This document shows positions 48,977 to 62,422 of a DNA stretch of 64,000 bases, piece by piece. This stretch comes from an uncultured Christensenella sp. (GTDB lineage: Bacteria > Bacillota > Clostridia > Christensenellales > Pumilibacteraceae): NCBI GenBank assembly GCA_949948895.1, contig CATLHE010000005.1, positions 2,306-66,305 on the forward strand. Direction: 5' to 3'. The notes below the pieces were generated by a model. It did no database searches. It was given only the letters and a program-made list of their open reading frames with translations, and was not told the origin of the DNA. A program made the translations under genes and the position numbers. Position 1 is the stretch's first letter. Each line of letters opens with the position of its first letter.

Positions 48977-49573
48977 TCATAGCTCGTTTATGTTTTCTTC
49001 GTCGGTTTCAATGAGGTCGGGTCGCAAGGCGTATATTGTGTTTTTGTATTCCGTTATGCCCGACATTATGGCGTAAGCCGTTACATGTTTCTTGTCGAAA
49101 TACAGAACAAATTTGCCCGTAGCGTTTTTCGCATCCCGCAGTGTAGTGATTTTGCCTTGATCTATGTGAGAGTCTATAAAACCGGTTATATCGGCAATGT
49201 TGTACGTCTTTCTTTTGCGAAACATGCCGACTACCGTAACGGTAGTATCGGTGTAGAATATTTTTTGGGAAACAAAATAAGCTGCAATACTAATTAAAAT
49301 ATTCATCAATCCCATCCATATAAATATCATAGGATCGTCAGCCGCGTCGTCATTTTGCGGATATATAGTCAATACCAATACGACTACTATCAATATCACG
49401 ATAAACGCAAACATAACGGTAAAAGATGTAATTGCAACGCGCGCGTATTTTACGCATTTATTTCCGACGGCTTTCTTGTCTCTGTTTTTTATCAAATGCC
49501 AAATGTGCCAACCGAAAAGATGCGTCCAGAGCGCCGATATGATCGATATGGCAATTATATCTTTTGTGTCCAT
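48977..49573 (-). CDS. Membrane protein of unknown function (tandem paralog 1)
   Basis: Three hydrophobic helices, then KIFY..TTVTVVGMFRKRKTY.IADIT..RPDL. Confidence 0.7.
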   Translation of the reverse strand: MDTKDIIAISIISALWTHLFGWHIWHLIKNRDKKAVGNKCVKYARVAITSFTVMFAFIVILIVVVLVLTIYPQNDDAADDPMIFIWMGLMNILISIAAYFVSQKIFYTDTTVTVVGMFRKRKTYNIADITGFIDSHIDQGKITTLRDAKNATGKFVLYFDKKHVTAYAIMSGITEYKNTIYALRPDLIETDEENINEL

Positions 49574-49633: not shown

Positions 49634-50245
49634 TTACTGCTTTTTTGATTTTTTAAGATCGGGGCGCTTGTGGTAGATAGTTTTTCTAAACTCCTCAATG
49701 CCCATCATAAAAGAACTAGCCGAAACGCGCTTTTTACCGAAGTACAAAACTAGCCGTCCCTGTGCTTTTCGTTGCGTCATCCCCAATGTGTTCGTGTCGT
49801 TAAACACTTGGACGGAATCGCGCACGTCGGTTATATCCGCTATCTCATACGTTTTCTTTTTGCGAAATATGCCGACGACCGTTATCGTATTTTCGTTGTA
49901 ATAAATCTTTTTTGAAAATAAATACTCTATCGTTATCGCGATAACGTCCAAGACGACCGTACCTATCTGCGCATAGAGCATGTCTGGCACGGCGTCGGCG
50001 GGCGCGTTCTCGACATTCAAAGCGACCAAGTACACTATACTCGCTATCAATACGACAACCGTCATGAGAATCCCGAGTATGAAAATGATTTTGAAAACAA
50101 TATCGATAAAAGTCATCCACCGCACGCACTTTTTGTCGGCGGCTTTTTTGTCGCCGTGCCTGCTTAAATACCAAATGAACCCAGCTAAGATCTGTACCGT
50201 CAGTACGGATATTACCGATACAAATATTATTCCTTGTATGTCCAT
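49634..50245 (-). CDS. Membrane protein of unknown function (tandem paralog 2)
   Basis: Same layout and KIYY..TITVVGIFRKKKTY.IADIT..RPDL motif as paralog 1. Confidence 0.7.
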   Translation of the reverse strand: MDIQGIIFVSVISVLTVQILAGFIWYLSRHGDKKAADKKCVRWMTFIDIVFKIIFILGILMTVVVLIASIVYLVALNVENAPADAVPDMLYAQIGTVVLDVIAITIEYLFSKKIYYNENTITVVGIFRKKKTYEIADITDVRDSVQVFNDTNTLGMTQRKAQGRLVLYFGKKRVSASSFMMGIEEFRKTIYHKRPDLKKSKKQ

Positions 50246-50376: not shown

Positions 50377-51480
50377 TTACACGCTTCTTACGGGCAGAAC
50401 GAGGTATATATACTCGTCTACGCCGCCTGCGGGCGAGACCACGCACGCCGAAGTCGAGTTGGTCATGTTAAGCACTATTGTGTCGCAGGTCATAAGGTGC
50501 AGGAATTCGGTGAAGTAGCGCGCGTTGAACGAGATGGATATGTCCGCGCCATCCGTTTTGACGGGGAGGTTTTCTTCCACATTGCCGACGTCGCTTCTCG
50601 ACTTGACGGTCATATTGGTTTGAGAAATATCGAAGCGCACGAGGTAGTTGTTCTTTTCCGTTTTTGCCATGAGCACGGCGCGGTCGATAGCGTCTTCGAA
50701 CAGGGCTTTGGGAATATACACCTGCGTGTCGAAGTGTTGGGGCACTATCTGGCGGTAATTGACGAACTCGCCGTCGATAAGTCTCGTGGTGATGGTCGTT
50801 GCGTCCAAACGCACCATGAGATAGTTTTTGTGCATGAACAGTTTGACCGTGTCGTCGTTGTCTGGCACGAGTTTGGATATTTCCATGACCGCGCGGACGG
50901 GCACGACAATGCTCGTGCACGCAGTGGTCGCGATGAGCGGTTTTACGCACTTGGCAAGGCGGTATCCGTCGAGCGCGACGGCGACTACGTCCTCCTCGTT
51001 TATCTCGAGCAGCACGCCTTTGAGCGCGGGGTGCGAGTCGTCGGTGCATACCGAAAACGCGACTTTATTGACGAGATCGCGGAAATCGGAGTTTTTCATT
51101 TCAAAGTGCTGTGTGTCCTCGACGCGGTTGACTTCGGGGAACAACTCCGCCGAGTAGCAACCGAATTCGCCTTCGCTGCGCTCGTAGTCGATCTTGAGTC
51201 GCGAACCGTTGGATGTGAGCACTATGTTCTGCGAAGTAAGTTTTTTAACGAAATCGCCGAACAGTTTGCCGGGAACGACTACTTCGCCCGATTCGATCAC
51301 TTCCGCACGTATCATGTGCTCGATGGAAAGCTCCAGGTCGGTCGCCGTAAGTGTGAGCGTGCCCGCTTCCGCCGACATTTTGATGCCTTCGAGCACGGGG
51401 TTGGTCGAGCGCGCGGACGCCGCTTTTATTACGCGTCCCACCGCCTCGCAGAGATCGTTACCGTTGCATTCGACTTTCAT
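50377..51480 (-). CDS. dnaN: DNA polymerase III beta sliding clamp
   Basis: ATDLELSI, VVPGKLF, LKGVL, VALDGYRLA, TRLIDGEFVNY, SFNARYF, LVLPVR; own promoter TTGACT-17-TATAAT on the - strand (51536-51508). Confidence 0.95.
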   Translation of the reverse strand: MKVECNGNDLCEAVGRVIKAASARSTNPVLEGIKMSAEAGTLTLTATDLELSIEHMIRAEVIESGEVVVPGKLFGDFVKKLTSQNIVLTSNGSRLKIDYERSEGEFGCYSAELFPEVNRVEDTQHFEMKNSDFRDLVNKVAFSVCTDDSHPALKGVLLEINEEDVVAVALDGYRLAKCVKPLIATTACTSIVVPVRAVMEISKLVPDNDDTVKLFMHKNYLMVRLDATTITTRLIDGEFVNYRQIVPQHFDTQVYIPKALFEDAIDRAVLMAKTEKNNYLVRFDISQTNMTVKSRSDVGNVEENLPVKTDGADISISFNARYFTEFLHLMTCDTIVLNMTNSTSACVVSPAGGVDEYIYLVLPVRSV

Positions 51481-52101: not shown

Positions 52102-52416
52102 TCATTCGTCGCAACCGCAGTCGTTCCTGCCATGCCCGTGCCCGCCGCAGCCGCAGTCGTGACCGTAGCCGTTGCCGTTGTTTTGACGACCGCAACCGCG
52201 AAGAGCGCAGAACGCGCCGTAAGCGCAAAGCATGTTGCGGCAGTTGCACGTACTGTTACGGTTGCAACGGCAACAGCACTTTTCGCACTCGCAGCATCCG
52301 CAGTTGTTCTTGCGCCCGCATTCGCATTCGCTGTGCCCGCACTCGCGCTCTACGGGTTTGCAACGCACACATTCGCGGCATTTGGTACAACGGCAACAAT
52401 CGTTATTAAAGAACAT
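52102..52416 (-). CDS. Small cysteine-rich protein (spore coat/exosporium-like or metal-binding)
   Basis: SD GGAGGTG before ATG 52416; 26 Cys in 104 aa. Confidence 0.65.
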   Translation of the reverse strand: MFFNNDCCRCTKCRECVRCKPVERECGHSECECGRKNNCGCCECEKCCCRCNRNSTCNCRNMLCAYGAFCALRGCGRQNNGNGYGHDCGCGGHGHGRNDCGCDE

Positions 52417-52601
52417 AAAACACCTCCGTTTGTTTATGTAATGCGGCATGCTTTATTTGAGGCGTTTATACTACAGTGTATGACGTCAATCTCACAATGG
52501 TGCGGCATAATAATGCCAAAGCGATTTACAATGTTTTGTATGTATGGTATAATATAGCCATAAGTACGCTTTGCCGTGCGACATGAATGATAGGAGGACT
52601 T

Positions 52602-54796: not shown

Positions 54797-54825
54797 TTGA
54801 CAAATCGAAATGCTTATGGTAGACT
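54797..54825 (+). promoter_or_regulatory. Promoter of the TIR-FtsZ-FtsK gene
   Basis: TTGACA-17-TAGACT with TG extension. Confidence 0.7.
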
Positions 54826-54845: not shown

Positions 54846-57713
54846 ATGAAAGATTACGTATTTATAAGTTACAGCTCCAAAAATAACGTCAAAGCCAAAA
54901 ACTTCAGAAGAGTATTGGAAGAAAACGGTATAGCGTGCTGGCGCGCGCCCGAGTCGATAGAGGCGGGCGCTAATTACGCCAAGTCCATCCCGTCCGCGAT
55001 AAAGAATTGCGGCGTGATGGTCGTTTTGATATCACGTGAATCTCAAGCGTCGGAATGGGTGCCCAAAGAGATCGACCTTGCCATAAATCAGCAAAAACCG
55101 ATATTGCCCATTTACATAGAAAACTGCGATCTTATAGAGCCGTTCGATCTGTATTTGTCCAACGTTCAAGCCGTTAAACTGTTTACGCAACGGCGCGAAG
55201 CTATCAGGCAGATAGTAGAGCGTATTCGCGCGGTCATGCCGCAGTGTGCTGAAAAAGAGCGCGCCGCAGCCGATTCGGAAGCGCTTTTACCGAGCGAGGA
55301 AAAGCCTATCGTATGTCCTTTTAAAATCGCCGTAGTAGGAGTAGGCGGTTGCGGCGTCAGTATTGTAAGCCAACTATCCAAGCACAAAACGGGTGTGCAT
55401 AAATACATAGCGCTCGACTGCGATAAAAATACCATATCGCGCGCATCTGCCGATATTAAGCTTATTATCGATAGCGAGCATAAGGACGACATTTCGCGTT
55501 CTCCCGAAAATGCGGAGAGAGCGATCGCGGGCAACGCCATGAAGATCAATGACGCTATTTCGGATAGCGATTGGGTGTTTGTCGTTGCGGGTTTGGGCGG
55601 AGGTATGGGCTCGGGCGGCGCGCCTAAGGTTGCCGAGCTTGCGCGAGGAATGGGTAAGCTTTCCGTTATGTTTGTTACCATGCCGTTTGATTTCGAGGGC
55701 GAAGATCGTCGCAAAAACGCACAGTTCGGAGCGACGCATATATATGAAGCGGCTCATTCTGTTGTGAAAATTCGTCAAGACAATATTCCAAAGCGCGTCG
55801 CCGATTCGGTGCCGTTTAAGACGGCGATGTCGTATATGGACGGGGTTGTGCAAAAGTCGATATTGGCGTTGCTCGATACGGTTTGCTCTAACGGGCTAAT
55901 AAATATAGATAGTTCGGATTTTGCCGTTTTGCTTAAAGACGGCGGAGACGTTATGATAGGAGTCGGCGAGGTGCGAGGCATCAACCGCGACATAGAAGCG
56001 GCTAACCTCGCCGTGTCATACGGGCTTTTGGGCGCAGAGATAAACGACGCAAAAAACGCGATCATAAATGTTTCGAGTTCGGACATAAGCTTAGACGAAG
56101 CGCAACATATTATAGAGCTAGTAAGGGGCAGTTGTAAAAATGACTCCAATATAGCGCTTGGAGTCGGCATTTTGCCCGAACTCGGGGATAGTCTTCGCGT
56201 AACGGTCATAGCGGGCATGGGTAAAGAAAAGCAGGCAAAGCGCAAGCGTTATGAAAATTACATGGCGCCGCCTACCGATATTTTGAAAAACTATCAATGC
56301 GTAGCCCCCGACGAGGACGATCTCAAACGCACTGCGGACACGCTTGAAAATACAGTCGGGCAGATATTAAATACAAAAGTGAAGGTCGTTAATATCATCC
56401 CGTCGGTTTCCGTCACGCGCTATGAATTGGAGTGCCCGTCCGGTACGCCCATAAAGAAGTTAGAGGCGCACGGCGCGGATATACAATACGATCTTGCGGC
56501 GGTAGGTCCTGTTAGAATAGAAGCGCCCATCGCCGGTAAGCGCGCCATAGGTATAGAGGTGCCAAACGCCCAAAAGTCGATAGTCGGCTTGCGCGAAATT
56601 GTTGAGTCCGACAAATATCAAAAAGCGAAGTCGCCCATGACGTTTGCCGTGGGCAAGGACATAAACGGCGACGCGGTGGTCTGCAATCTCGAAAAGGTCC
56701 CGCACTTTCTCGTTGCGGGACAAACGGGGAGCGGAAAGAGCGCGTTTATCAACAGTCTTATCGTAAGCTTGCTATATAAGGCGTCGCCCGAATATATGCG
56801 CTTTATTTTGATAGACCCCAAACGCGTCGCGTTTTCGGCGTATGCGGGAATGCCGCACCTGTTGTTTAACGGTATCATAAATGAGCCCGATGAAGCGCTT
56901 TCGGCGCTCGATTGGGCGGTAAACGAGATGGATCGGCGGTATGCGCTTTTGTCCAAGCATAAGTGCAATCATATATCCATGTTTAACGAAAGCGAGAGCG
57001 TGGTATCGGGCAAGGTCGACCGCTTGCCGCATATAGTCATTATTATCGACGAGCTTGCCGATCTCATGGGGTCGGAGGTTAAGCGCGATATCGAAGACAA
57101 GATAAAAAGATTAACGGCAATAGCGCGCGCGTCCGGCATTCACATTATAGTCGCTACACAGCGCCCGTCGGCGGACGTTCTTACGGGAACTATCAAGAGC
57201 AATATCACCAGCCGCGTTGCGTTTAGGGTCGTAACCGGCACGGATTCGCGTATTATCTTGGATGCGACGGGGGCGGAATCGCTCGTCGGCAACGGCGACA
57301 TGCTGTACTTTCCTGCCGAGTACATTTCGCCCAAGCGCGTGCAGGGCGCGTTTATAAGCGACGAAGAAGTAGCGTCCGTTTTGACTTATGTAAAAGATCA
57401 TGGGGCGTGCGACTTTGACGAGTCCGCGGCGAAGGCGGTGTTCGGCAGCATGCGCTCGATAAATCGCGAGATATCGGAAGTTGCGCAAAGCGATCCGCTT
57501 TTTTCCGACATTCTCGCTCAAGTGATCCGCGCAAATCAAGCGTCGGTATCTTACATCCAGCGCAAGTTTGCCATTGGTTATGCACGCGCGGCGCGGCTTA
57601 TTGACGTTATGGAACAGTTCGGTTTTATAAGTCCTGTAACGGACTGTAAGCCTCGAGACGTACTTATTACCAAAGAACAGTACCGTGCGATGTTCGGTCG
57701 CAACGTCGATTGA
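54846..57713 (+). CDS. TIR - FtsZ/tubulin-like - FtsK(alpha/beta/gamma) three-domain fusion
   Basis: aa 1-130 VFISYSS, SEWVPKEI (TIR); aa 160-460 IAVVGVGG, AGLGGGMGSG, PFDFEG, GLINIDSSD (FtsZ); aa 470-955 VTRYEL, RIEAPI.GK.AIGIEVPN, AGQTGSGKS, IIIDELADLM, ATQRPS, IQRKFAIGYARAARLID (FtsK). Confidence 0.9.
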   Translation: MKDYVFISYSSKNNVKAKNFRRVLEENGIACWRAPESIEAGANYAKSIPSAIKNCGVMVVLISRESQASEWVPKEIDLAINQQKPILPIYIENCDLIEPFDLYLSNVQAVKLFTQRREAIRQIVERIRAVMPQCAEKERAAADSEALLPSEEKPIVCPFKIAVVGVGGCGVSIVSQLSKHKTGVHKYIALDCDKNTISRASADIKLIIDSEHKDDISRSPENAERAIAGNAMKINDAISDSDWVFVVAGLGGGMGSGGAPKVAELARGMGKLSVMFVTMPFDFEGEDRRKNAQFGATHIYEAAHSVVKIRQDNIPKRVADSVPFKTAMSYMDGVVQKSILALLDTVCSNGLINIDSSDFAVLLKDGGDVMIGVGEVRGINRDIEAANLAVSYGLLGAEINDAKNAIINVSSSDISLDEAQHIIELVRGSCKNDSNIALGVGILPELGDSLRVTVIAGMGKEKQAKRKRYENYMAPPTDILKNYQCVAPDEDDLKRTADTLENTVGQILNTKVKVVNIIPSVSVTRYELECPSGTPIKKLEAHGADIQYDLAAVGPVRIEAPIAGKRAIGIEVPNAQKSIVGLREIVESDKYQKAKSPMTFAVGKDINGDAVVCNLEKVPHFLVAGQTGSGKSAFINSLIVSLLYKASPEYMRFILIDPKRVAFSAYAGMPHLLFNGIINEPDEALSALDWAVNEMDRRYALLSKHKCNHISMFNESESVVSGKVDRLPHIVIIIDELADLMGSEVKRDIEDKIKRLTAIARASGIHIIVATQRPSADVLTGTIKSNITSRVAFRVVTGTDSRIILDATGAESLVGNGDMLYFPAEYISPKRVQGAFISDEEVASVLTYVKDHGACDFDESAAKAVFGSMRSINREISEVAQSDPLFSDILAQVIRANQASVSYIQRKFAIGYARAARLIDVMEQFGFISPVTDCKPRDVLITKEQYRAMFGRNVD

Positions 57714-57725
57714 GTTATAACAAAT

Positions 57726-57763
57726 AAAAATAGCGCACGCGACTATCATGCGTGCGCCTTTTT
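57726..57763. terminator. Bidirectional intrinsic terminator
   Basis: AAAAA-ta-GCGCACGC-9nt-GCGTGCGC-cTTTTT between convergent genes. Confidence 0.8.
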
Positions 57764-57776
57764 ATATGCGTGATAA

Positions 57777-58316
57777 TTAAAACATTTTGGGGTCGATCTT
57801 TTTCATGTAACGCTCGCCCAAATAATTGGACATCATGTCGCGGTATTCGGGCGGCTGTATTTCGCCGCCCACGCCCATGGCCGCGAAGACGACCGTCGCT
57901 TCTTTTATTTTAAGCGGCAAGTCGGTAAAACCGCACCGCTTGTAAAACTCGTGCCGTCTGACGCGATAGTCGTAGTTTTGCGCGCTCTCGTCGAGCGTTT
58001 CCAATGCCAAAAAGAACCGTCCGTCGGCGTAGCGGTCTTTGAGCGTTTCAAGCGCATGAGAGCCATAGCCCTTTCCGCGCAGGGCTTTGTCTATCGCGAA
58101 AAAATAGAGGTAGGCGAGCCCTTGCGCTTTTATAGCGTATGCCATGCCTATGAGCTTGCCGTCGTCGTGCAAAGCCCAAAAGTCCGCTTTGTCGGGTGCG
58201 GCTTTATTTACGAGTAGACGAAACGGTACGCGCTCGGCTTTCGGGAACGCGTGCTTATAAAGCTTTTTGATAGCGGGAAGGTCTTTCGATCTCTTTGTAA
58301 CGGATATAAGTTCCAT
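57777..58316 (-). CDS. GNAT family N-acetyltransferase
   Basis: LYKHAFP..ER.PF, YLYFFAID..LRGKGYGS, RHEFYKRCGF. Confidence 0.92.
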   Translation of the reverse strand: MELISVTKRSKDLPAIKKLYKHAFPKAERVPFRLLVNKAAPDKADFWALHDDGKLIGMAYAIKAQGLAYLYFFAIDKALRGKGYGSHALETLKDRYADGRFFLALETLDESAQNYDYRVRRHEFYKRCGFTDLPLKIKEATVVFAAMGVGGEIQPPEYRDMMSNYLGERYMKKIDPKMF

Positions 58317-59271
58317 GATTTGTCCTTATTATATCTTGGTTGTTTTTATTCTGTTCTTCTTTTCCGACGTATATGTAGTAGGCAAATCCTAACGCGCCCG
58401 AGTAGTAGTTGACAACAACTGAATCGCCTTTGGACAGTTCGTAATAGTCGCTTGACGGGACGTCTATCCACTGCTCTTTGCCGTCTATCTTGACTTTTAA
58501 TTCGTAAGTGGTCGGCGTGCTCGTGCCCGTCGAAACGTTTTTATCGAGCACTTCGCACACAATGGGAGCGGGCTCGCTTTTGTCGAATATCACGTCGGCT
58601 ATGCCTATCGTCGGAAATGACACGCCATATGAAAAAATCAATATAACAAAGGTATAGAGAAAACCGTATCCTATCTTTTTGCGTTTTGTGGGGCATATGG
58701 CGTTTATCACGTTTCGCATAATGACCAAAATCACAATTATCAAGATAGCGGTCAGTATCGCCGCGGGTATAAACGCCCACGCCATGTATATCTCGTTTAC
58801 GTAGTTTATCGGCATGATCGATATCATGGCAAAAAGATCCAAGCTAATAGCGCAAATAGACGACTTTACGTCCACGTCCGTTTTCATGCACTCGGTGGCG
58901 CGGACTTTGAGTATAGCGCGGAACGAGACGAGTATCAGCATGACCGCCGAATACAGCGCCGATATTAAAGAAAATATCCCTCCGATAAAGTAGAACAACA
59001 AAAATAATAAAAGACAGCCCAAATACAAGAATGATGCCAATACGATATTTTGGGGCTTGCGGTTTTCCGCATTTGCCGTCAGTGTCTGCACGTACGCAGT
59101 TATGTACAGGAGCGAAAGGAAGAGCACGTACAGTACGTCTGCCCATATATATTCGGTTATTTCGTAAGCGAAAAACGAGTTGCTCAAAAGTCCAAGCACA
59201 GCCGCGCCTAAAAAGCCTATGCCGTACAGGATATAAAATATAAGGTTGTGTTTGAATTTGATTTTTTTCAT
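58255..59271 (-). CDS. Polytopic membrane protein with C-terminal beta domain
   Basis: About 8 hydrophobic helices, then VLDK..STG..YELKV..V...Y..L.KGD.V. Confidence 0.65.
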   Translation of the reverse strand: MKKIKFKHNLIFYILYGIGFLGAAVLGLLSNSFFAYEITEYIWADVLYVLFLSLLYITAYVQTLTANAENRKPQNIVLASFLYLGCLLLFLLFYFIGGIFSLISALYSAVMLILVSFRAILKVRATECMKTDVDVKSSICAISLDLFAMISIMPINYVNEIYMAWAFIPAAILTAILIIVILVIMRNVINAICPTKRKKIGYGFLYTFVILIFSYGVSFPTIGIADVIFDKSEPAPIVCEVLDKNVSTGTSTPTTYELKVKIDGKEQWIDVPSSDYYELSKGDSVVVNYYSGALGFAYYIYVGKEEQNKNNQDIIRTNHGTYIRYKEIERPSRYQKAL

Positions 59272-59288: not shown

Positions 59289-60479
59289 CTATACCGAAAG
59301 CATCTCGTATAAAAACTCTTCGAAGTTTTCGTACGGGGATATGCTAGAGCCGTCGTCGGGGAAGCAATGGACCTTTTTGTCGTCGGCATTTTTGGAAAAC
59401 GCGTAGTATGTTCCGTCGCTGTTTATTCCGAAGAAATAGAAGTCGTCCGTTTTCATGCCGCCTTGCGCTGAGAGTATTTTTTCCAAAGGCTCTACTTCGT
59501 CGGCGCTTAGATTGGACGGCGTGCCGTTATCTCTGCCCACGTTTACAAAGTCCATATCGACAAAGCCTATTTCTTTCAAGAACCTCAGGTAGCTCTCGGG
59601 CAGGAAAGGATGCGACTTTCTTATCGTCTGCACCTCTTCGGCGGAAAGCTCTATCGTATTGAATTGACGGCGTTTTATCTTGGGTATGAGCGAATCTATG
59701 TCGCGTGAAAAATCGAACGAGTCGTTTTTAAGTTCGACGGTGCCCTCGACCGTGTCGCACAGCCCGCACGACACTCGGACGGAAAAGTAAACCGTGAGAG
59801 TACCTTTTTCGTAACCGAGTATCTTGACGAAGCCGTAATCGATATCGTCGTATTCGACCGTCCACACTCCGAGATTATAGCCGCAGTCGGGCTTGAGCGT
59901 TAACGTTTTGCCGACGGCGTTTTTTACGGCGTCGCGTAGAATTATGCCGTTGTCGTTGGCGTATTCTTCCAACGCCTCGCCGTCGTGATAGCCCGCCATT
60001 ATCGATACGCCGCTGCTTTCGAGGTCTGTCACGTCGTCGTAATCGTCGGGCATGTGCTTCAATTTGGTGCCGACGATCTCAAACGCGAAGTGGTGTCCGC
60101 GCTTGTTCTTAAAGTTTTCTTCGCATACGTACCGACCGTCGGCATAAAACTCTACGCCCGCGTCGATAAGCCGCAAAGTGTTCGGCGCGGGATAGTCGGT
60201 CTTGTTTTCAAACTCCGCTTTCGCGTCCGTTAAAAGCTTATCGAGATCTTGGCTTTTTTCGAGCGCTTCTTGCAGTTCGCTCTTATTTACGGCGCGTAGG
60301 GCAAGCACGCGTATCAGCCACATGAGCAAGCAGCCTAACGCAAAGCATATCAAAAGCCCGCCCAACGCGATTATTCTGTTGTTATCGGACAACGCCGCGA
60401 TCAACGCGCCCGCAACGATAAGTATAGGCATGCCTATGAATATAACAAAGTTTAAATAATAGTATTTGTCGTGCTTCAT
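59289..60479 (-). CDS. Membrane-anchored protein with C-terminal SMI1/KNR4-like domain
   Basis: Two N-terminal TM helices; C-terminal LSAEEV..I...FLPESYLRFL..IG...FFG...G..YAF...VH...Y.NFEEFL. Confidence 0.6.
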   Translation of the reverse strand: MKHDKYYYLNFVIFIGMPILIVAGALIAALSDNNRIIALGGLLICFALGCLLMWLIRVLALRAVNKSELQEALEKSQDLDKLLTDAKAEFENKTDYPAPNTLRLIDAGVEFYADGRYVCEENFKNKRGHHFAFEIVGTKLKHMPDDYDDVTDLESSGVSIMAGYHDGEALEEYANDNGIILRDAVKNAVGKTLTLKPDCGYNLGVWTVEYDDIDYGFVKILGYEKGTLTVYFSVRVSCGLCDTVEGTVELKNDSFDFSRDIDSLIPKIKRRQFNTIELSAEEVQTIRKSHPFLPESYLRFLKEIGFVDMDFVNVGRDNGTPSNLSADEVEPLEKILSAQGGMKTDDFYFFGINSDGTYYAFSKNADDKKVHCFPDDGSSISPYENFEEFLYEMLSV

Positions 60480-60601: not shown

Positions 60602-62422
60602 TCAATCGGTGATATCATCTTTGTCTACGAAAAATGCGTTTTTGGAGCCTATATAATTATTTATGTCGGCATACGTCACATCTTCTTTAATGGATAAGAA
60701 TAATGCTTTTAATTGTTCGTAATCGCGATTGACGCTTTCGATATTATTTAGGGGGAGGGCGGCGGTTGTCATGTACGGGTTTTTGTCTTTGACGTCTTTT
60801 TCAAAGTCGTTCACTTGTTCGGTCTGAACAAACAGCATGGGCACGGTCGTTTTGACGATTTTATATGCCGTTTTTCCGTCGGCCGTTTCCGTCACGACGT
60901 ACCAAACGTCTTTCATTTCTATATCGAATCGCCGCGAGCTTGTCGGGATTATCGGGTTGACTTTTTTTGTGATGAACGGAGTGCTTTGACCGTTCACGTA
61001 AACAGTATCGGCGTTTAGCCCGTTGCGGTCGTCGGTAACGCGCACGCTTTGAAAACCTTGAACATGATTCAAGTGTAACCATAGCGTATCGTAGTTGACT
61101 AATTTGATCGTTTCTTGAACTCTTCCGCCTATCAGTTCGCCCGTGACGGAAGAATACACTTCTTCGTATCCGTTAATAATCATATCGTCGGTTTCGCGCT
61201 TATCTGACATAACTATCGTTTGTTGCGGGTCGCTTGTTATGACTGCCGTCGTTTTCAGATTGGTTTCATCGGTGCCCGTAAACTCGCGCAAGTATCCTGT
61301 TACGGAATTCCCGTCGCGCAAAAATTCGATTTGTTTAAGGTTGCCGACGCCGCCTGCCGTCGTTTTGACGGCAAACTTTAACGAGTTTTCCGTGGATGTG
61401 TATTTTACCGCTATGCCGTCGGTCAGCTGTATTCTTCCTGTGTTTGCGGCTGTTTCTGCGTCGTTGAAAAGCTCGATAGATACGACGGAGTTTCCCGCGA
61501 GCAATAAGCTCTTTTGCCCGTCGAGCAGTATCCCTATCTTGAAGCCCGCTATCTCTGCCGAGAAGTTTGTCGGTTTATCGGGGTTATTATTGATAAATGT
61601 TTGATAAGCATTGGCTACGGCTTCCTGTATTGCAAAAACCAAATCGATTTTGTTGATGACGCCGGCTGCGTCCAATAGTCCTTCGTACAGTACGTTCAAT
61701 TGTTTGCCTATTGTTTTTGTAGCTATTCGCGAAACTGCTACGTCGGCTGCAAAAGCGTTCATGCCGCTTATAGGCATTTGAGCATACGCCATATTTTCGG
61801 GCAGGAAGGCTTCGGGCATAAACGCCCACGGATCGGGCTTTTTCAAAAGCGAAGATAAAACCGAAACGGCAAAGTCCGATTTAGCCGTTATTGTCAATTG
61901 CGCATTGAGCGTGAGCGTGTTATAGTTGGGGTTTGTCAGCGTTGCCGTTACATTATAGACGCCTATATTATTTTGATCGTTGTTTGTATATGTGATTGTT
62001 GTTCCGTCTGGTATGTCGCCGCTCACGGATAGCGAACAGGTTTGACCTAAGTGAATAAAATTTTTATTTTCCAGCGTGAGCCCGACAAAATCGGCTTTGT
62101 TAATAGTCAACGTTGCTGTTAGTATTTTGCTTTGGTAGTTTTCGTGACTCAGCTCGGCAGTCACGGTATAAACGCCGGCGTCCGTCTTGGCATTGTTTTG
62201 ATATGTAACGTTTGTGTTTTCGGGCAGTGTTCCCGATACCGCGAGCGAGTGCGGCATGCCGTCGTAAGTGAATTCTTTATCCGACAATGTCACGCCTGTG
62301 AACTGTTGCGGTTTTTCGTCGCTACTCGGGTCGTTCTTATCGACGGGCGAGCAGGCGCAGAGAGACAGAGATATCAAAGTCGCCGTAAGAACGGAAGCAA
62401 CGGTTAGCCAAAATTTTTTCAT
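60602..62422 (-). CDS. Lipoprotein with two MBG-like Ig repeats and an unknown C-terminal region
   Basis: Lipobox LCAC; two ~70-aa repeats L..K.F...G...SL.VSG.LP.GT.VTY.NN.....GVY.VTA.L...NY....L.A.L.I. Confidence 0.75.
   Translation of the reverse strand: MKKFWLTVASVLTATLISLSLCACSPVDKNDPSSDEKPQQFTGVTLSDKEFTYDGMPHSLAVSGTLPENTNVTYQNNAKTDAGVYTVTAELSHENYQSKILTATLTINKADFVGLTLENKNFIHLGQTCSLSVSGDIPDGTTITYTNNDQNNIGVYNVTATLTNPNYNTLTLNAQLTITAKSDFAVSVLSSLLKKPDPWAFMPEAFLPENMAYAQMPISGMNAFAADVAVSRIATKTIGKQLNVLYEGLLDAAGVINKIDLVFAIQEAVANAYQTFINNNPDKPTNFSAEIAGFKIGILLDGQKSLLLAGNSVVSIELFNDAETAANTGRIQLTDGIAVKYTSTENSLKFAVKTTAGGVGNLKQIEFLRDGNSVTGYLREFTGTDETNLKTTAVITSDPQQTIVMSDKRETDDMIINGYEEVYSSVTGELIGGRVQETIKLVNYDTLWLHLNHVQGFQSVRVTDDRNGLNADTVYVNGQSTPFITKKVNPIIPTSSRRFDIEMKDVWYVVTETADGKTAYKIVKTTVPMLFVQTEQVNDFEKDVKDKNPYMTTAALPLNNIESVNRDYEQLKALFLSIKEDVTYADINNYIGSKNAFFVDKDDITD

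Follow-up and report, generated by a model that had tools for sequence, protein, structure and literature searches.

What would a bacterium gain from carrying a TIR domain, a cytoskeletal polymer fold and a DNA pump in a single polypeptide? The question is raised by a gene at positions 54846 to 57713 (plus strand) of a 64,000-nucleotide stretch of an uncultured Christensenella sp. genome (assembly GCA_949948895.1, contig CATLHE010000005.1; the whole stretch is referred to here as the window). An earlier note on this DNA had described the gene as one uninterrupted open reading frame (ORF) of 955 amino acids (aa) with TIR, FtsZ, and FtsK parts. The frame is indeed open throughout, and a Pfam scan places six domains in it, each over its gathering score, in the order TIR-FtsZ-FtsK(alpha, beta, gamma). 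Bacterial, plant, and animal TIR enzymes are switched on by ordered assembly. Our tentative reading, which we hold to be somewhat short of probable, is that the fusion would be a stand-alone, assembly-gated TIR NADase serving in conflict or surveillance, outside the core division machinery. For its assembly, the TIR would then rely on two modules of the cell itself, the cytoskeletal polymer fold of FtsZ and the DNA pump FtsK.

The TIR domain (TIR_2, PF13676; 3e-22, 79.8 bits against a cut-off of 28) spans positions 54858 to 55214 (aa 5 to 123). It is followed by junction 1, a 27-aa low-confidence linker (PQCAEKERAAADSEALLPSEEKPIVCP; 55239 to 55319, aa 132 to 158) delimited from the AlphaFold2 (AF2) model and the motif positions. 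The FtsZ part comprises an N-terminal nucleotide-binding subdomain (Tubulin; 55323 to 55787, aa 160 to 314; Pfam 4e-26) and a C-terminal subdomain (FtsZ_C; 55944 to 56213, aa 367 to 456; Pfam 6e-16). Junction 2, placed by alignment (56214 to 56273, aa 457 to 476), reads GMGKEKQAKRKR and then YENYMAPP, the start of FtsK alpha, where the FtsK resident in the same genome reads HYENYNAPP; it lies at the identical place in relatives of the fusion with 54% (P0003) and 40% (P0242) identity. The remainder consists of FtsK alpha (PF17854; 56268 to 56567, aa 475 to 574; 1e-14, 54.7 bits), the RecA-like motor FtsK beta (56589 to 57425, approximately aa 582 to 860; FtsK_SpoIIIE, PF01580, at aa 582 to 775, 3e-54, 184.3 bits), and the winged-helix DNA-binding domain FtsK gamma (PF09397; 57486 to 57671, aa 881 to 942; 3e-22, 78.7 bits), all on the plus strand. 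Both junctions are where the earlier note had put them, and the motifs that it quoted were found as claimed: FISYSS at aa 6 to 11, SEWVPKE at 69 to 75, AGQTGSGKS at 624 to 632, IIIDE at 732 to 736, and ATQRPS at 770 to 775. Its two reported absences hold as well. No membrane anchor is apparent, the top 19-residue hydropathy being 1.9 versus 3.45 in the resident FtsK, and the FtsK 4TM domain (PF13491) was not matched in the Pfam scan. The FtsZ C-terminal linker and the peptide that serves membrane tethers are missing because FtsZ_C, which ends at about aa 456, runs directly into FtsK alpha, which starts at aa 469 to 475. The AF2 model covers aa 1 to 470, and the full-length MAFFT alignment crossed FtsZ and FtsK homologues between domains.

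Is the ORF a genuine gene? It could be an assembly chimera or a decaying, functionless pseudogene, and a sister strain does lack approximately 205 bp at the 3′ end. This explanation is nevertheless extremely improbable, as the same junctions recur in at least four independent assemblies, the frame is open across 955 aa, the promoter is conserved, and the ratio of nonsynonymous to synonymous substitution rates (dN/dS) against the sister-strain allele lies between 0.01 and 0.25, i.e., below 1 in every module (TIR, 0.012; FtsZ, 0.22; FtsK beta, 0.25). The relatives comprise a 97% identical fusion with the same neighbours in two SRA samples (P0002), a 54% identical (P0003) and a 40% identical fusion, complete through gamma (P0242), each from an independent assembly, and a fragment of the same architecture (P0122). 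Their contigs are short; in two assemblies of the 97%, 54%, and 40% identity set, the fusion occupies the same chromosomal site, and P0003 is a positional orthologue (TM1506 upstream 65% identical, GNAT downstream 63%). Because the fusion occurs in at least four independent assemblies, positional orthologues included, and bears the mark of purifying selection, these comparisons exclude the chimeric assembly that had been considered beforehand; by the same evidence the ORF is a real, conserved gene under purifying selection. Nor is it the housekeeping copy, the other doubt originally raised, since the source genome (1.86 Mb, 94.5% complete) carries, beside the fusion, a separate ftsZ of the canonical type (contig C10) and a membrane-anchored FtsK of 1161 aa (contig C6).

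Which of its parts does selection hold most tightly? Against the 97% sister strain, the TIR shows 19 synonymous changes and a single non-synonymous one, in a stretch where synonymous divergence is 0.27, about three times that of the flanking genes. It is 83% identical to the TIR of P0003, versus 63 to 65% for the genes flanking the two loci and 42 to 54% for the FtsZ and FtsK modules (FtsZ, 54%; alpha, 42%; beta, 51%; gamma is absent from P0003). The corresponding values against P0242 are 52% for the TIR, 34% for FtsZ, and 28, 46, and 45% for FtsK alpha, beta, and gamma, respectively. The catalytic-type glutamate that the earlier note had pointed out in SEWVPKE is Glu75 (55068 to 55070), within a W71-x3-E75 motif; it aligns with the Glu of the AbTir WTNYE motif and is invariant in the eight TIR-FtsZ proteins aligned (8/8). 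The AF2 model gives aa 1 to 96 a pLDDT of 84 to 92, with alternating strands and helices in a TIR fold. The SARM1 TIR also matches, weakly, in a PDB sequence comparison, and the best TIR matches in PADLOC are SAVED-TIR and ThsB. By these measures, the TIR is the best conserved and most constrained module of the fusion and has kept its catalytic-type glutamate.

Can the FtsZ module polymerise? Its fold appears complete, with a pLDDT of 83 and Foldseek TM values of ~0.9 (root mean square deviation, ~2.3 Å) to solved FtsZ cores, and the sequence matches Staphylococcus aureus FtsZ end to end (E = 4.5e-46). It scores 191.6 bits with the FtsZ equivalog TIGR00065, below the cut-off of 295.2, and shares only 33% identity with the resident FtsZ, besides which the genome has no further FtsZ. 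Measured against 55 canonical FtsZ sequences, the module departs at 28 of the 75 columns conserved to at least 90%, with these departures concentrated in the nucleotide pocket (T1 to T4 and T6). T1 reads GVGGCGVS, with Asn replaced by Ser (N172S); in T2 (LDCD), NTD has become DCD (N191D/T192C); the GAG loop of T3 is lost (DISRSPEN); T4 reads GGGMGSG, with GGGTG changed to GGGMG (T254M); and the Asn of T6 is Gln (N311Q). T5 (PFDFEG) is kept, and the T7 “synergy” loop, NIDSSD (55902 to 55919), is intact and retains NxDxxD as N353, D355, and D358. In FtsZ, this loop completes the GTPase site of the neighbouring subunit. The erosion of the pocket is mostly common to P0003 and P0122, with the T4 Thr still kept in P0003; P0242 and the TIR-FtsZ protein P0322 have canonical FtsZ loops. 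Compared with FtsZ proper, the module thus shares the core fold, T5, and T7, and differs in its score, in T1 to T4 and T6, and in the missing C-terminal linker and peptide. The “complete FtsZ-like GTPase body” of the earlier note therefore stands for the fold and T7 but not for the GTP pocket, which these alignments indicate is eroded. The module looks able to donate its T7 loop to a GTP-bound neighbour and is doubtful as a GTP-binding acceptor. Because the pocket is eroded while T7 is kept, GTP-driven polymerisation of its own is probably not to be expected, and docking onto the resident FtsZ seems at least as likely as self-polymerisation.

The FtsK half, by comparison with its family, looks like a nearly canonical, potentially active alpha-beta(-gamma) motor, in keeping with the soluble motor with intact motifs and a gamma domain that had been proposed. 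Beta contains Walker A (AGQTGSGKS, with K631; 56715 to 56741), Walker B (IIIDE; 57039 to 57053), ATQRPS, and TDSRIILD, the R802 of which we take to be the arginine finger. Changes affect 13 of 143 conserved FtsK columns, mostly conservatively (5/95 in beta), and Escherichia coli FtsK (2ius) matches the motor with an E value of 1e-95. Walker A, Walker B, and DSRIILD are kept in all four fusion lineages. Gamma is present in the fusion and in P0242, deleted in the 97% strain allele, and absent from P0003, i.e., lost in two of the four fusion proteins. The fusion likewise has the alpha, beta, and gamma domains, Walker motifs, and DSRIILD of FtsK/SpoIIIE; it differs from these proteins in having neither 4TM domain nor long linker, in its N-terminal TIR and FtsZ modules, in a gamma that is dispensable in relatives, and in being an extra copy. 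With NF007615, the full-length FtsK equivalog, it scores 351 bits against a cut-off of 1566.

Where the motor came from bears on what it may be for. It is 63, 76, and 60% identical to the resident FtsK in alpha, beta, and gamma, respectively, and in the FtsK tree it falls inside the housekeeping clade, beside the FtsK of its own genome (starred support, 95 and 99). Its branch exceeds those of its housekeeping neighbours many times in length; the nearest FtsK relatives are metagenome-assembled genomes labelled “Clostridiales bacterium.” The motors of P0003 and P0242 lie elsewhere in the tree, also on long branches. In approximately unbiased (AU) tests, monophyly of the motors of the fusion, P0002, and P0003 was not rejected (p = 0.073), and monophyly including P0242 was (p = 0.009). 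The nesting and the AU tests together indicate a resident ftsK as the origin of the motor, which was copied either in a single event or, through re-capture or conversion, several times. Independent capture of the motor in the lineages of the fusion and P0003, at which the tree hints, was not significant (AU p = 0.073). In the FtsZ tree, which like the FtsK tree contains long branches, the modules of the fusion, P0003, P0242, and the related protein P0243 group tentatively beside resident-type FtsZ. At the strain level, the gene is a mosaic: relative to the sister-strain allele (L019), positions 55545 to 56944 (~1.4 kb) are almost identical, the flanks differ by 3 to 5%, patches within 56945 to 57544 diverge by up to 23%, and the ~205 bp deleted in the sister strain are those that encode gamma. 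Gene conversion from the genome's own ftsK was considered as the source of the divergent patches and set aside, as neither allele is near the resident ftsK there.

These observations invite the view, put forward as an alternative in the earlier note, that the fusion is an integrated-decoy guard, the FtsZ-like and FtsK modules of which would bait phage inhibitors of FtsZ or FtsK, with binding releasing or clustering the TIR. The closeness of the FtsK part to the resident motor (76% in beta, within the host clade) suits such a role, the rejection of a single clade for all four fusion motors would agree with a motor refreshed repeatedly from the resident gene, and genes under conflict typically show recombination mosaics such as the one in the 3′ third here. 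The FtsZ part does not fit, being a poor mimic at 33% identity and with 28/75 conserved columns changed. Moreover, no lineage has lost the catalytic motifs of FtsK, which a pure bait would not need, motor monophyly is not rejected for the fusion's own clade, and we know of no phage inhibitor of FtsK. There is a precedent in that inactive domain copies have been proposed to bind viral proteins (Kaur, Burroughs, Iyer, Aravind 2020, eLife; PMC7159879). On balance, the decoy is rather unlikely. We give similarly little credence to a guard of the divisome and nucleoid, by which the cell-division machinery would be wired into innate immunity: its FtsZ-like face would dock onto resident FtsZ filaments and, together with an FtsK motor refreshed periodically from the resident gene, would report phage attack on division proteins or else foreign DNA, with polymer-templated activation of the TIR. 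If true, this would make the fusion a cytoskeleton-scaffolded integrated-decoy immune receptor, comparable to the plant NLR-ID proteins.

How, then, might an assembly-gated TIR NADase of this build work? In resting cells, the protein would be dispersed and its TIR domains inactive. Loading of the FtsK motor on double-stranded DNA as a hexamer could bring the TIR domains together; alternatively or in addition, the FtsZ module could dock by its T7 face onto FtsZ-type filaments, for which the resident FtsZ would be a likelier partner than self-polymerisation because of the eroded GTP pocket. Clustered TIRs would form composite active sites and cleave NAD+, so that an infected or damaged cell would stop growing or die. 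Candidate triggers include foreign DNA, DNA trapped at the division site, and a disturbance of FtsZ. By analogy only, a polymerising module can be concentrated locally on DNA that serves it as a platform, as in AIM2-like immune polymers.

Does the pairing recur elsewhere? TIR domains joined to FtsZ or tubulin modules were found in several other architectures: TIR-FtsZ (P0246 and P0322), TIR-TIR-FtsZ (P0243, 701 aa), zinc-ribbon-TIR-FtsZ (P0390 and P0391, in one species of the same genus), and Tubulin_2-TIR (P0225). In one locus (L062:167-3796, SRR8298012), a dUTPase_2 gene (130 aa) is followed after 22 bp by P0243 and, after another 22 bp, by P0431, a 362-aa protein of four tandem FtsK gamma winged-helix domains. 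With P0431 adjacent to P0243, FtsK-derived DNA-binding modules, as recognised by their domains, go with TIR-FtsZ both within one protein and as a separate gene. In a congeneric species (G018; L057:10001-15609), P0390 (789 aa) lies directly after ruvC in a string of genes comprising ftsK-miaB-pgsA-cinA-recA-ruvA-ruvB-queA-tgt, with asnA and then a zinc-ribbon-TIR-Sel1/TPR paralogue downstream. P0390 and this paralogue, two genes away, share an N-terminal zinc-ribbon-TIR module of ~330 aa (29% over 351 columns, E = 5e-34), and from this common module it appears that the FtsZ of P0390 holds the slot of a sensor or assembly domain. Despite the rarity of the family, a functional link is credible because TIR-FtsZ/tubulin fusions recur in several architectures with FtsK-derived modules fused or neighbouring. 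Assembly modules that cluster a catalytic TIR would fit the constraint on the TIR, the recurrence of TIR-FtsZ, and the recurrence of FtsK modules beside it. The corresponding proposal of the earlier note is partly supported; its FtsZ self-polymerisation arm is made doubtful by the eroded pocket.

Several points weigh against an assembly-gated NADase. A conserved Glu is necessary, not sufficient, for NADase activity. Chromosomal DNA and resident FtsZ are always present, and therefore some auto-inhibition or trigger is needed. Sequence-guided DNA reading cannot, on the domain comparisons, be central because gamma is dispensable, and the eroded GTP pocket weakens the picture of an FtsZ filament arraying TIRs. 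No defence-related domain was found in the flanking genes scanned, and the comparison with PADLOC-DB v2, which covered the fusion protein itself, gave single-domain matches only (the FtsK-like part of SspH and mad8 and the TIR of SAVED-TIR and ThsB). The other TIR-FtsZ genes also lie among housekeeping genes, the neighbours of P0246, P0322, P0225, and P0390 being mostly housekeeping or unknown genes; the sole hint of defence near these relatives is a sub-threshold SLATT_3 match beside P0322.

Of the known systems, assembly-activated TIR effectors such as TIR-SAVED, TIR-STING, AbTir, and SARM1 resemble the fusion in combining a TIR_2-type domain with a WxxxE Glu and a domain able to oligomerise. 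Unlike them, the fusion has neither a cyclic-nucleotide sensor nor a partner synthase operon, its modules are FtsZ and FtsK derived, and its NADase activity is predicted. Its TIR matches ThsB of Thoeris (ThsB plus ThsA) at the domain level, with no ThsA-type effector gene adjoining (the flanks are TM1506 and GNAT; the locus was searched, not the rest of the genome), and there is no full-length match to any system protein in PADLOC-DB v2. The nearest precedent is the set of bacterial conflict systems, also using TIR effectors, into which FtsK, MinD/ParA, and, rarely, FtsZ/tubulin domains have been recruited (Kaur, Burroughs, Iyer, Aravind 2020, eLife; PMC7159879). These are multigene vWA-MoxR or GTPase systems with FtsK ATPases predicted to be inactive (PMC7159879); the fusion, by contrast, is encoded by one gene, and its motor, directly joined to a TIR, looks active. 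A full-text literature search, from whose coverage most subscription journals are absent, found no description of TIR-FtsZ or TIR-FtsZ-FtsK proteins, so that, in agreement with the earlier note, the architecture is apparently undescribed. Should the fusion prove to serve immunity or surveillance, it would tie cell division and chromosome handling directly to NAD+-based cell-fate decisions, and the gene would offer a compact, single-gene system for how a polymer or a DNA-loaded ring gates a TIR.

Could the fusion serve the division cycle instead? SftA of Bacillus subtilis, an FtsK paralogue that acts at the septum, is soluble and, like the fusion, has no membrane anchor. The fusion might similarly be a soluble DNA translocase tethered to the Z-ring, with the FtsZ-like module replacing 4TM targeting, the TIR having an oligomerisation or regulatory function only, and the whole having a cell-cycle rather than an immune role, the clearing of DNA at the division site. 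The architecture mirrors that of FtsK, a targeting domain and then a motor; the motor is nearly canonical and sits in the tree beside the resident ftsK; a kept T7 and an eroded pocket would fit docking on the resident FtsZ; and the genus relative P0390 lies in a ftsK-recA-ruvABC string. An independent, TIR-less fusion also exists in the reverse order, a soluble FtsK(alpha, beta, gamma)-FtsZ protein of 1015 aa (P0051; L022:5544-13737). Such a translocase is harder to reconcile with the extreme patchiness of the gene (1/119 and 1/401 genomes, see below) and with the loss of gamma in two of the four fusion proteins, a domain needed by FtsK for XerCD activation and directional reading. A TIR that is the most conserved module and has a catalytic Glu is likewise hard to square with a mere spacer. 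We regard this possibility as unlikely; if correct, it would represent a new way of targeting FtsK-type motors.

The same relatives bear on whether the fusion belongs to DNA partition. The TubZ/TubR (type III) systems pair a protein of the tubulin/FtsZ fold with a DNA binder of the winged-helix type, and the fusion could be a comparable partition or mobile-element module in which an FtsZ-type filament is coupled to DNA via FtsK domains so as to move or hold it, with the TIR as an addiction or exclusion toxin. FtsZ-type proteins are repeatedly paired with FtsK gamma winged-helix domains (e.g., P0243 with P0431), and P0051 has a VirD4/TraG-type coupling protein on one side and a DEAD/ResIII helicase on the other, with spoIIAA-spoIIAB-sigF a short way downstream. 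The likeness to TubZ/TubR is one of analogy only, as the homology shown extends only to the FtsZ fold and the fusion has no centromere or plasmid context. Its locus contains no integrase, relaxase, or replication gene and has a G+C content like that of its surroundings, the gene is chromosomal and syntenic across species, and no comparable fusion was found in 50,697 phage or 72,556 plasmid records, which yielded plain FtsZ only, none covering at least 80% of the query. A partition role is accordingly improbable.

How widespread is the gene, and what surrounds it? The fusion was present in one of 119 species genomes of the family, the others matching only by ordinary FtsZ at ~35% identity, and in one of 401 genomes across the order (173 genera). 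DNA pattern scans built on aligned TIR-FtsZ halves recovered nothing but unrelated TIR proteins from the GTDB representatives and one FtsZ from the JGI metagenomes. By this distribution, the fusion is a rare accessory gene. Upstream, the genus preserves the order of a block comprising an aldo-keto reductase, an ECF-type transporter S component, and TM1506. This synteny stops exactly past TM1506, and the fusion is the first gene of a variable block that continues with GNAT, a 338-aa membrane protein, a SUKH/SMI1-type protein, an MBG lipoprotein, and MscS. With such neighbours, the co-location with a defence island envisaged in the earlier note did not materialise.

The fusion gene is monocistronic, with a promoter-like site and a terminator-like hairpin of its own. 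The former, TTGACA-17-TAGACT with a TG extension, lies at 54797 to 54825 (plus strand), with the start codon 20 nucleotides downstream; the orthologue P0003 has a similar TTGACA promoter and has kept the ribosome-binding stretch GGTGGAATA. By eye, no LexA-type box is conserved upstream between the two genes. The hairpin (57733 to 57757, both strands), a 9-bp stem with seven G-C pairs followed by a T run, is common with the convergent GNAT gene.

Within the variable block, the SUKH-type gene (59289 to 60479, minus strand) encodes a 396-aa protein whose C-terminal domain is of the SUKH/SMI1-KNR4 kind, which the immunity proteins of polymorphic toxin systems are known to carry; its vicinity showed no toxin gene. 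The SUKH-type gene adjoins the gene for the 338-aa protein (58255 to 59271, minus strand), which is multi-pass and has no family match. Between the SUKH-type gene and mscS, a 606-aa MBG-domain lipoprotein is encoded at 60602 to 62422 (minus strand), the place of which is taken in the 97% sister strain by a gene for a 328-aa HTH_3 protein. Elsewhere in the window, two adjacent paralogous membrane proteins of ~200 aa with no Pfam match (48977 to 49573 and 49634 to 50245, both minus strand) adjoin a dnaN-like ORF (50377 to 51480), so named from sequence only, and a putative gene at 52102 to 52449 (minus strand), overlapping plus-strand ORFs, would encode a 115-aa, extremely Cys-rich protein with CxxC-type repeats. 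Finally, a further TIR protein, of 958 aa, is conserved between two species of the genus (L048:1070-3946 in G014 and L049:596-3472 in G018). It has a P-loop, GRPGIGKN, recognised by eye, and a C-terminal HD_3 domain, the Pfam matches to TIR and HD_3 being those of the G014 copy only, and is a candidate defence protein resembling the nucleotide-binding leucine-rich repeat (NLR) type.

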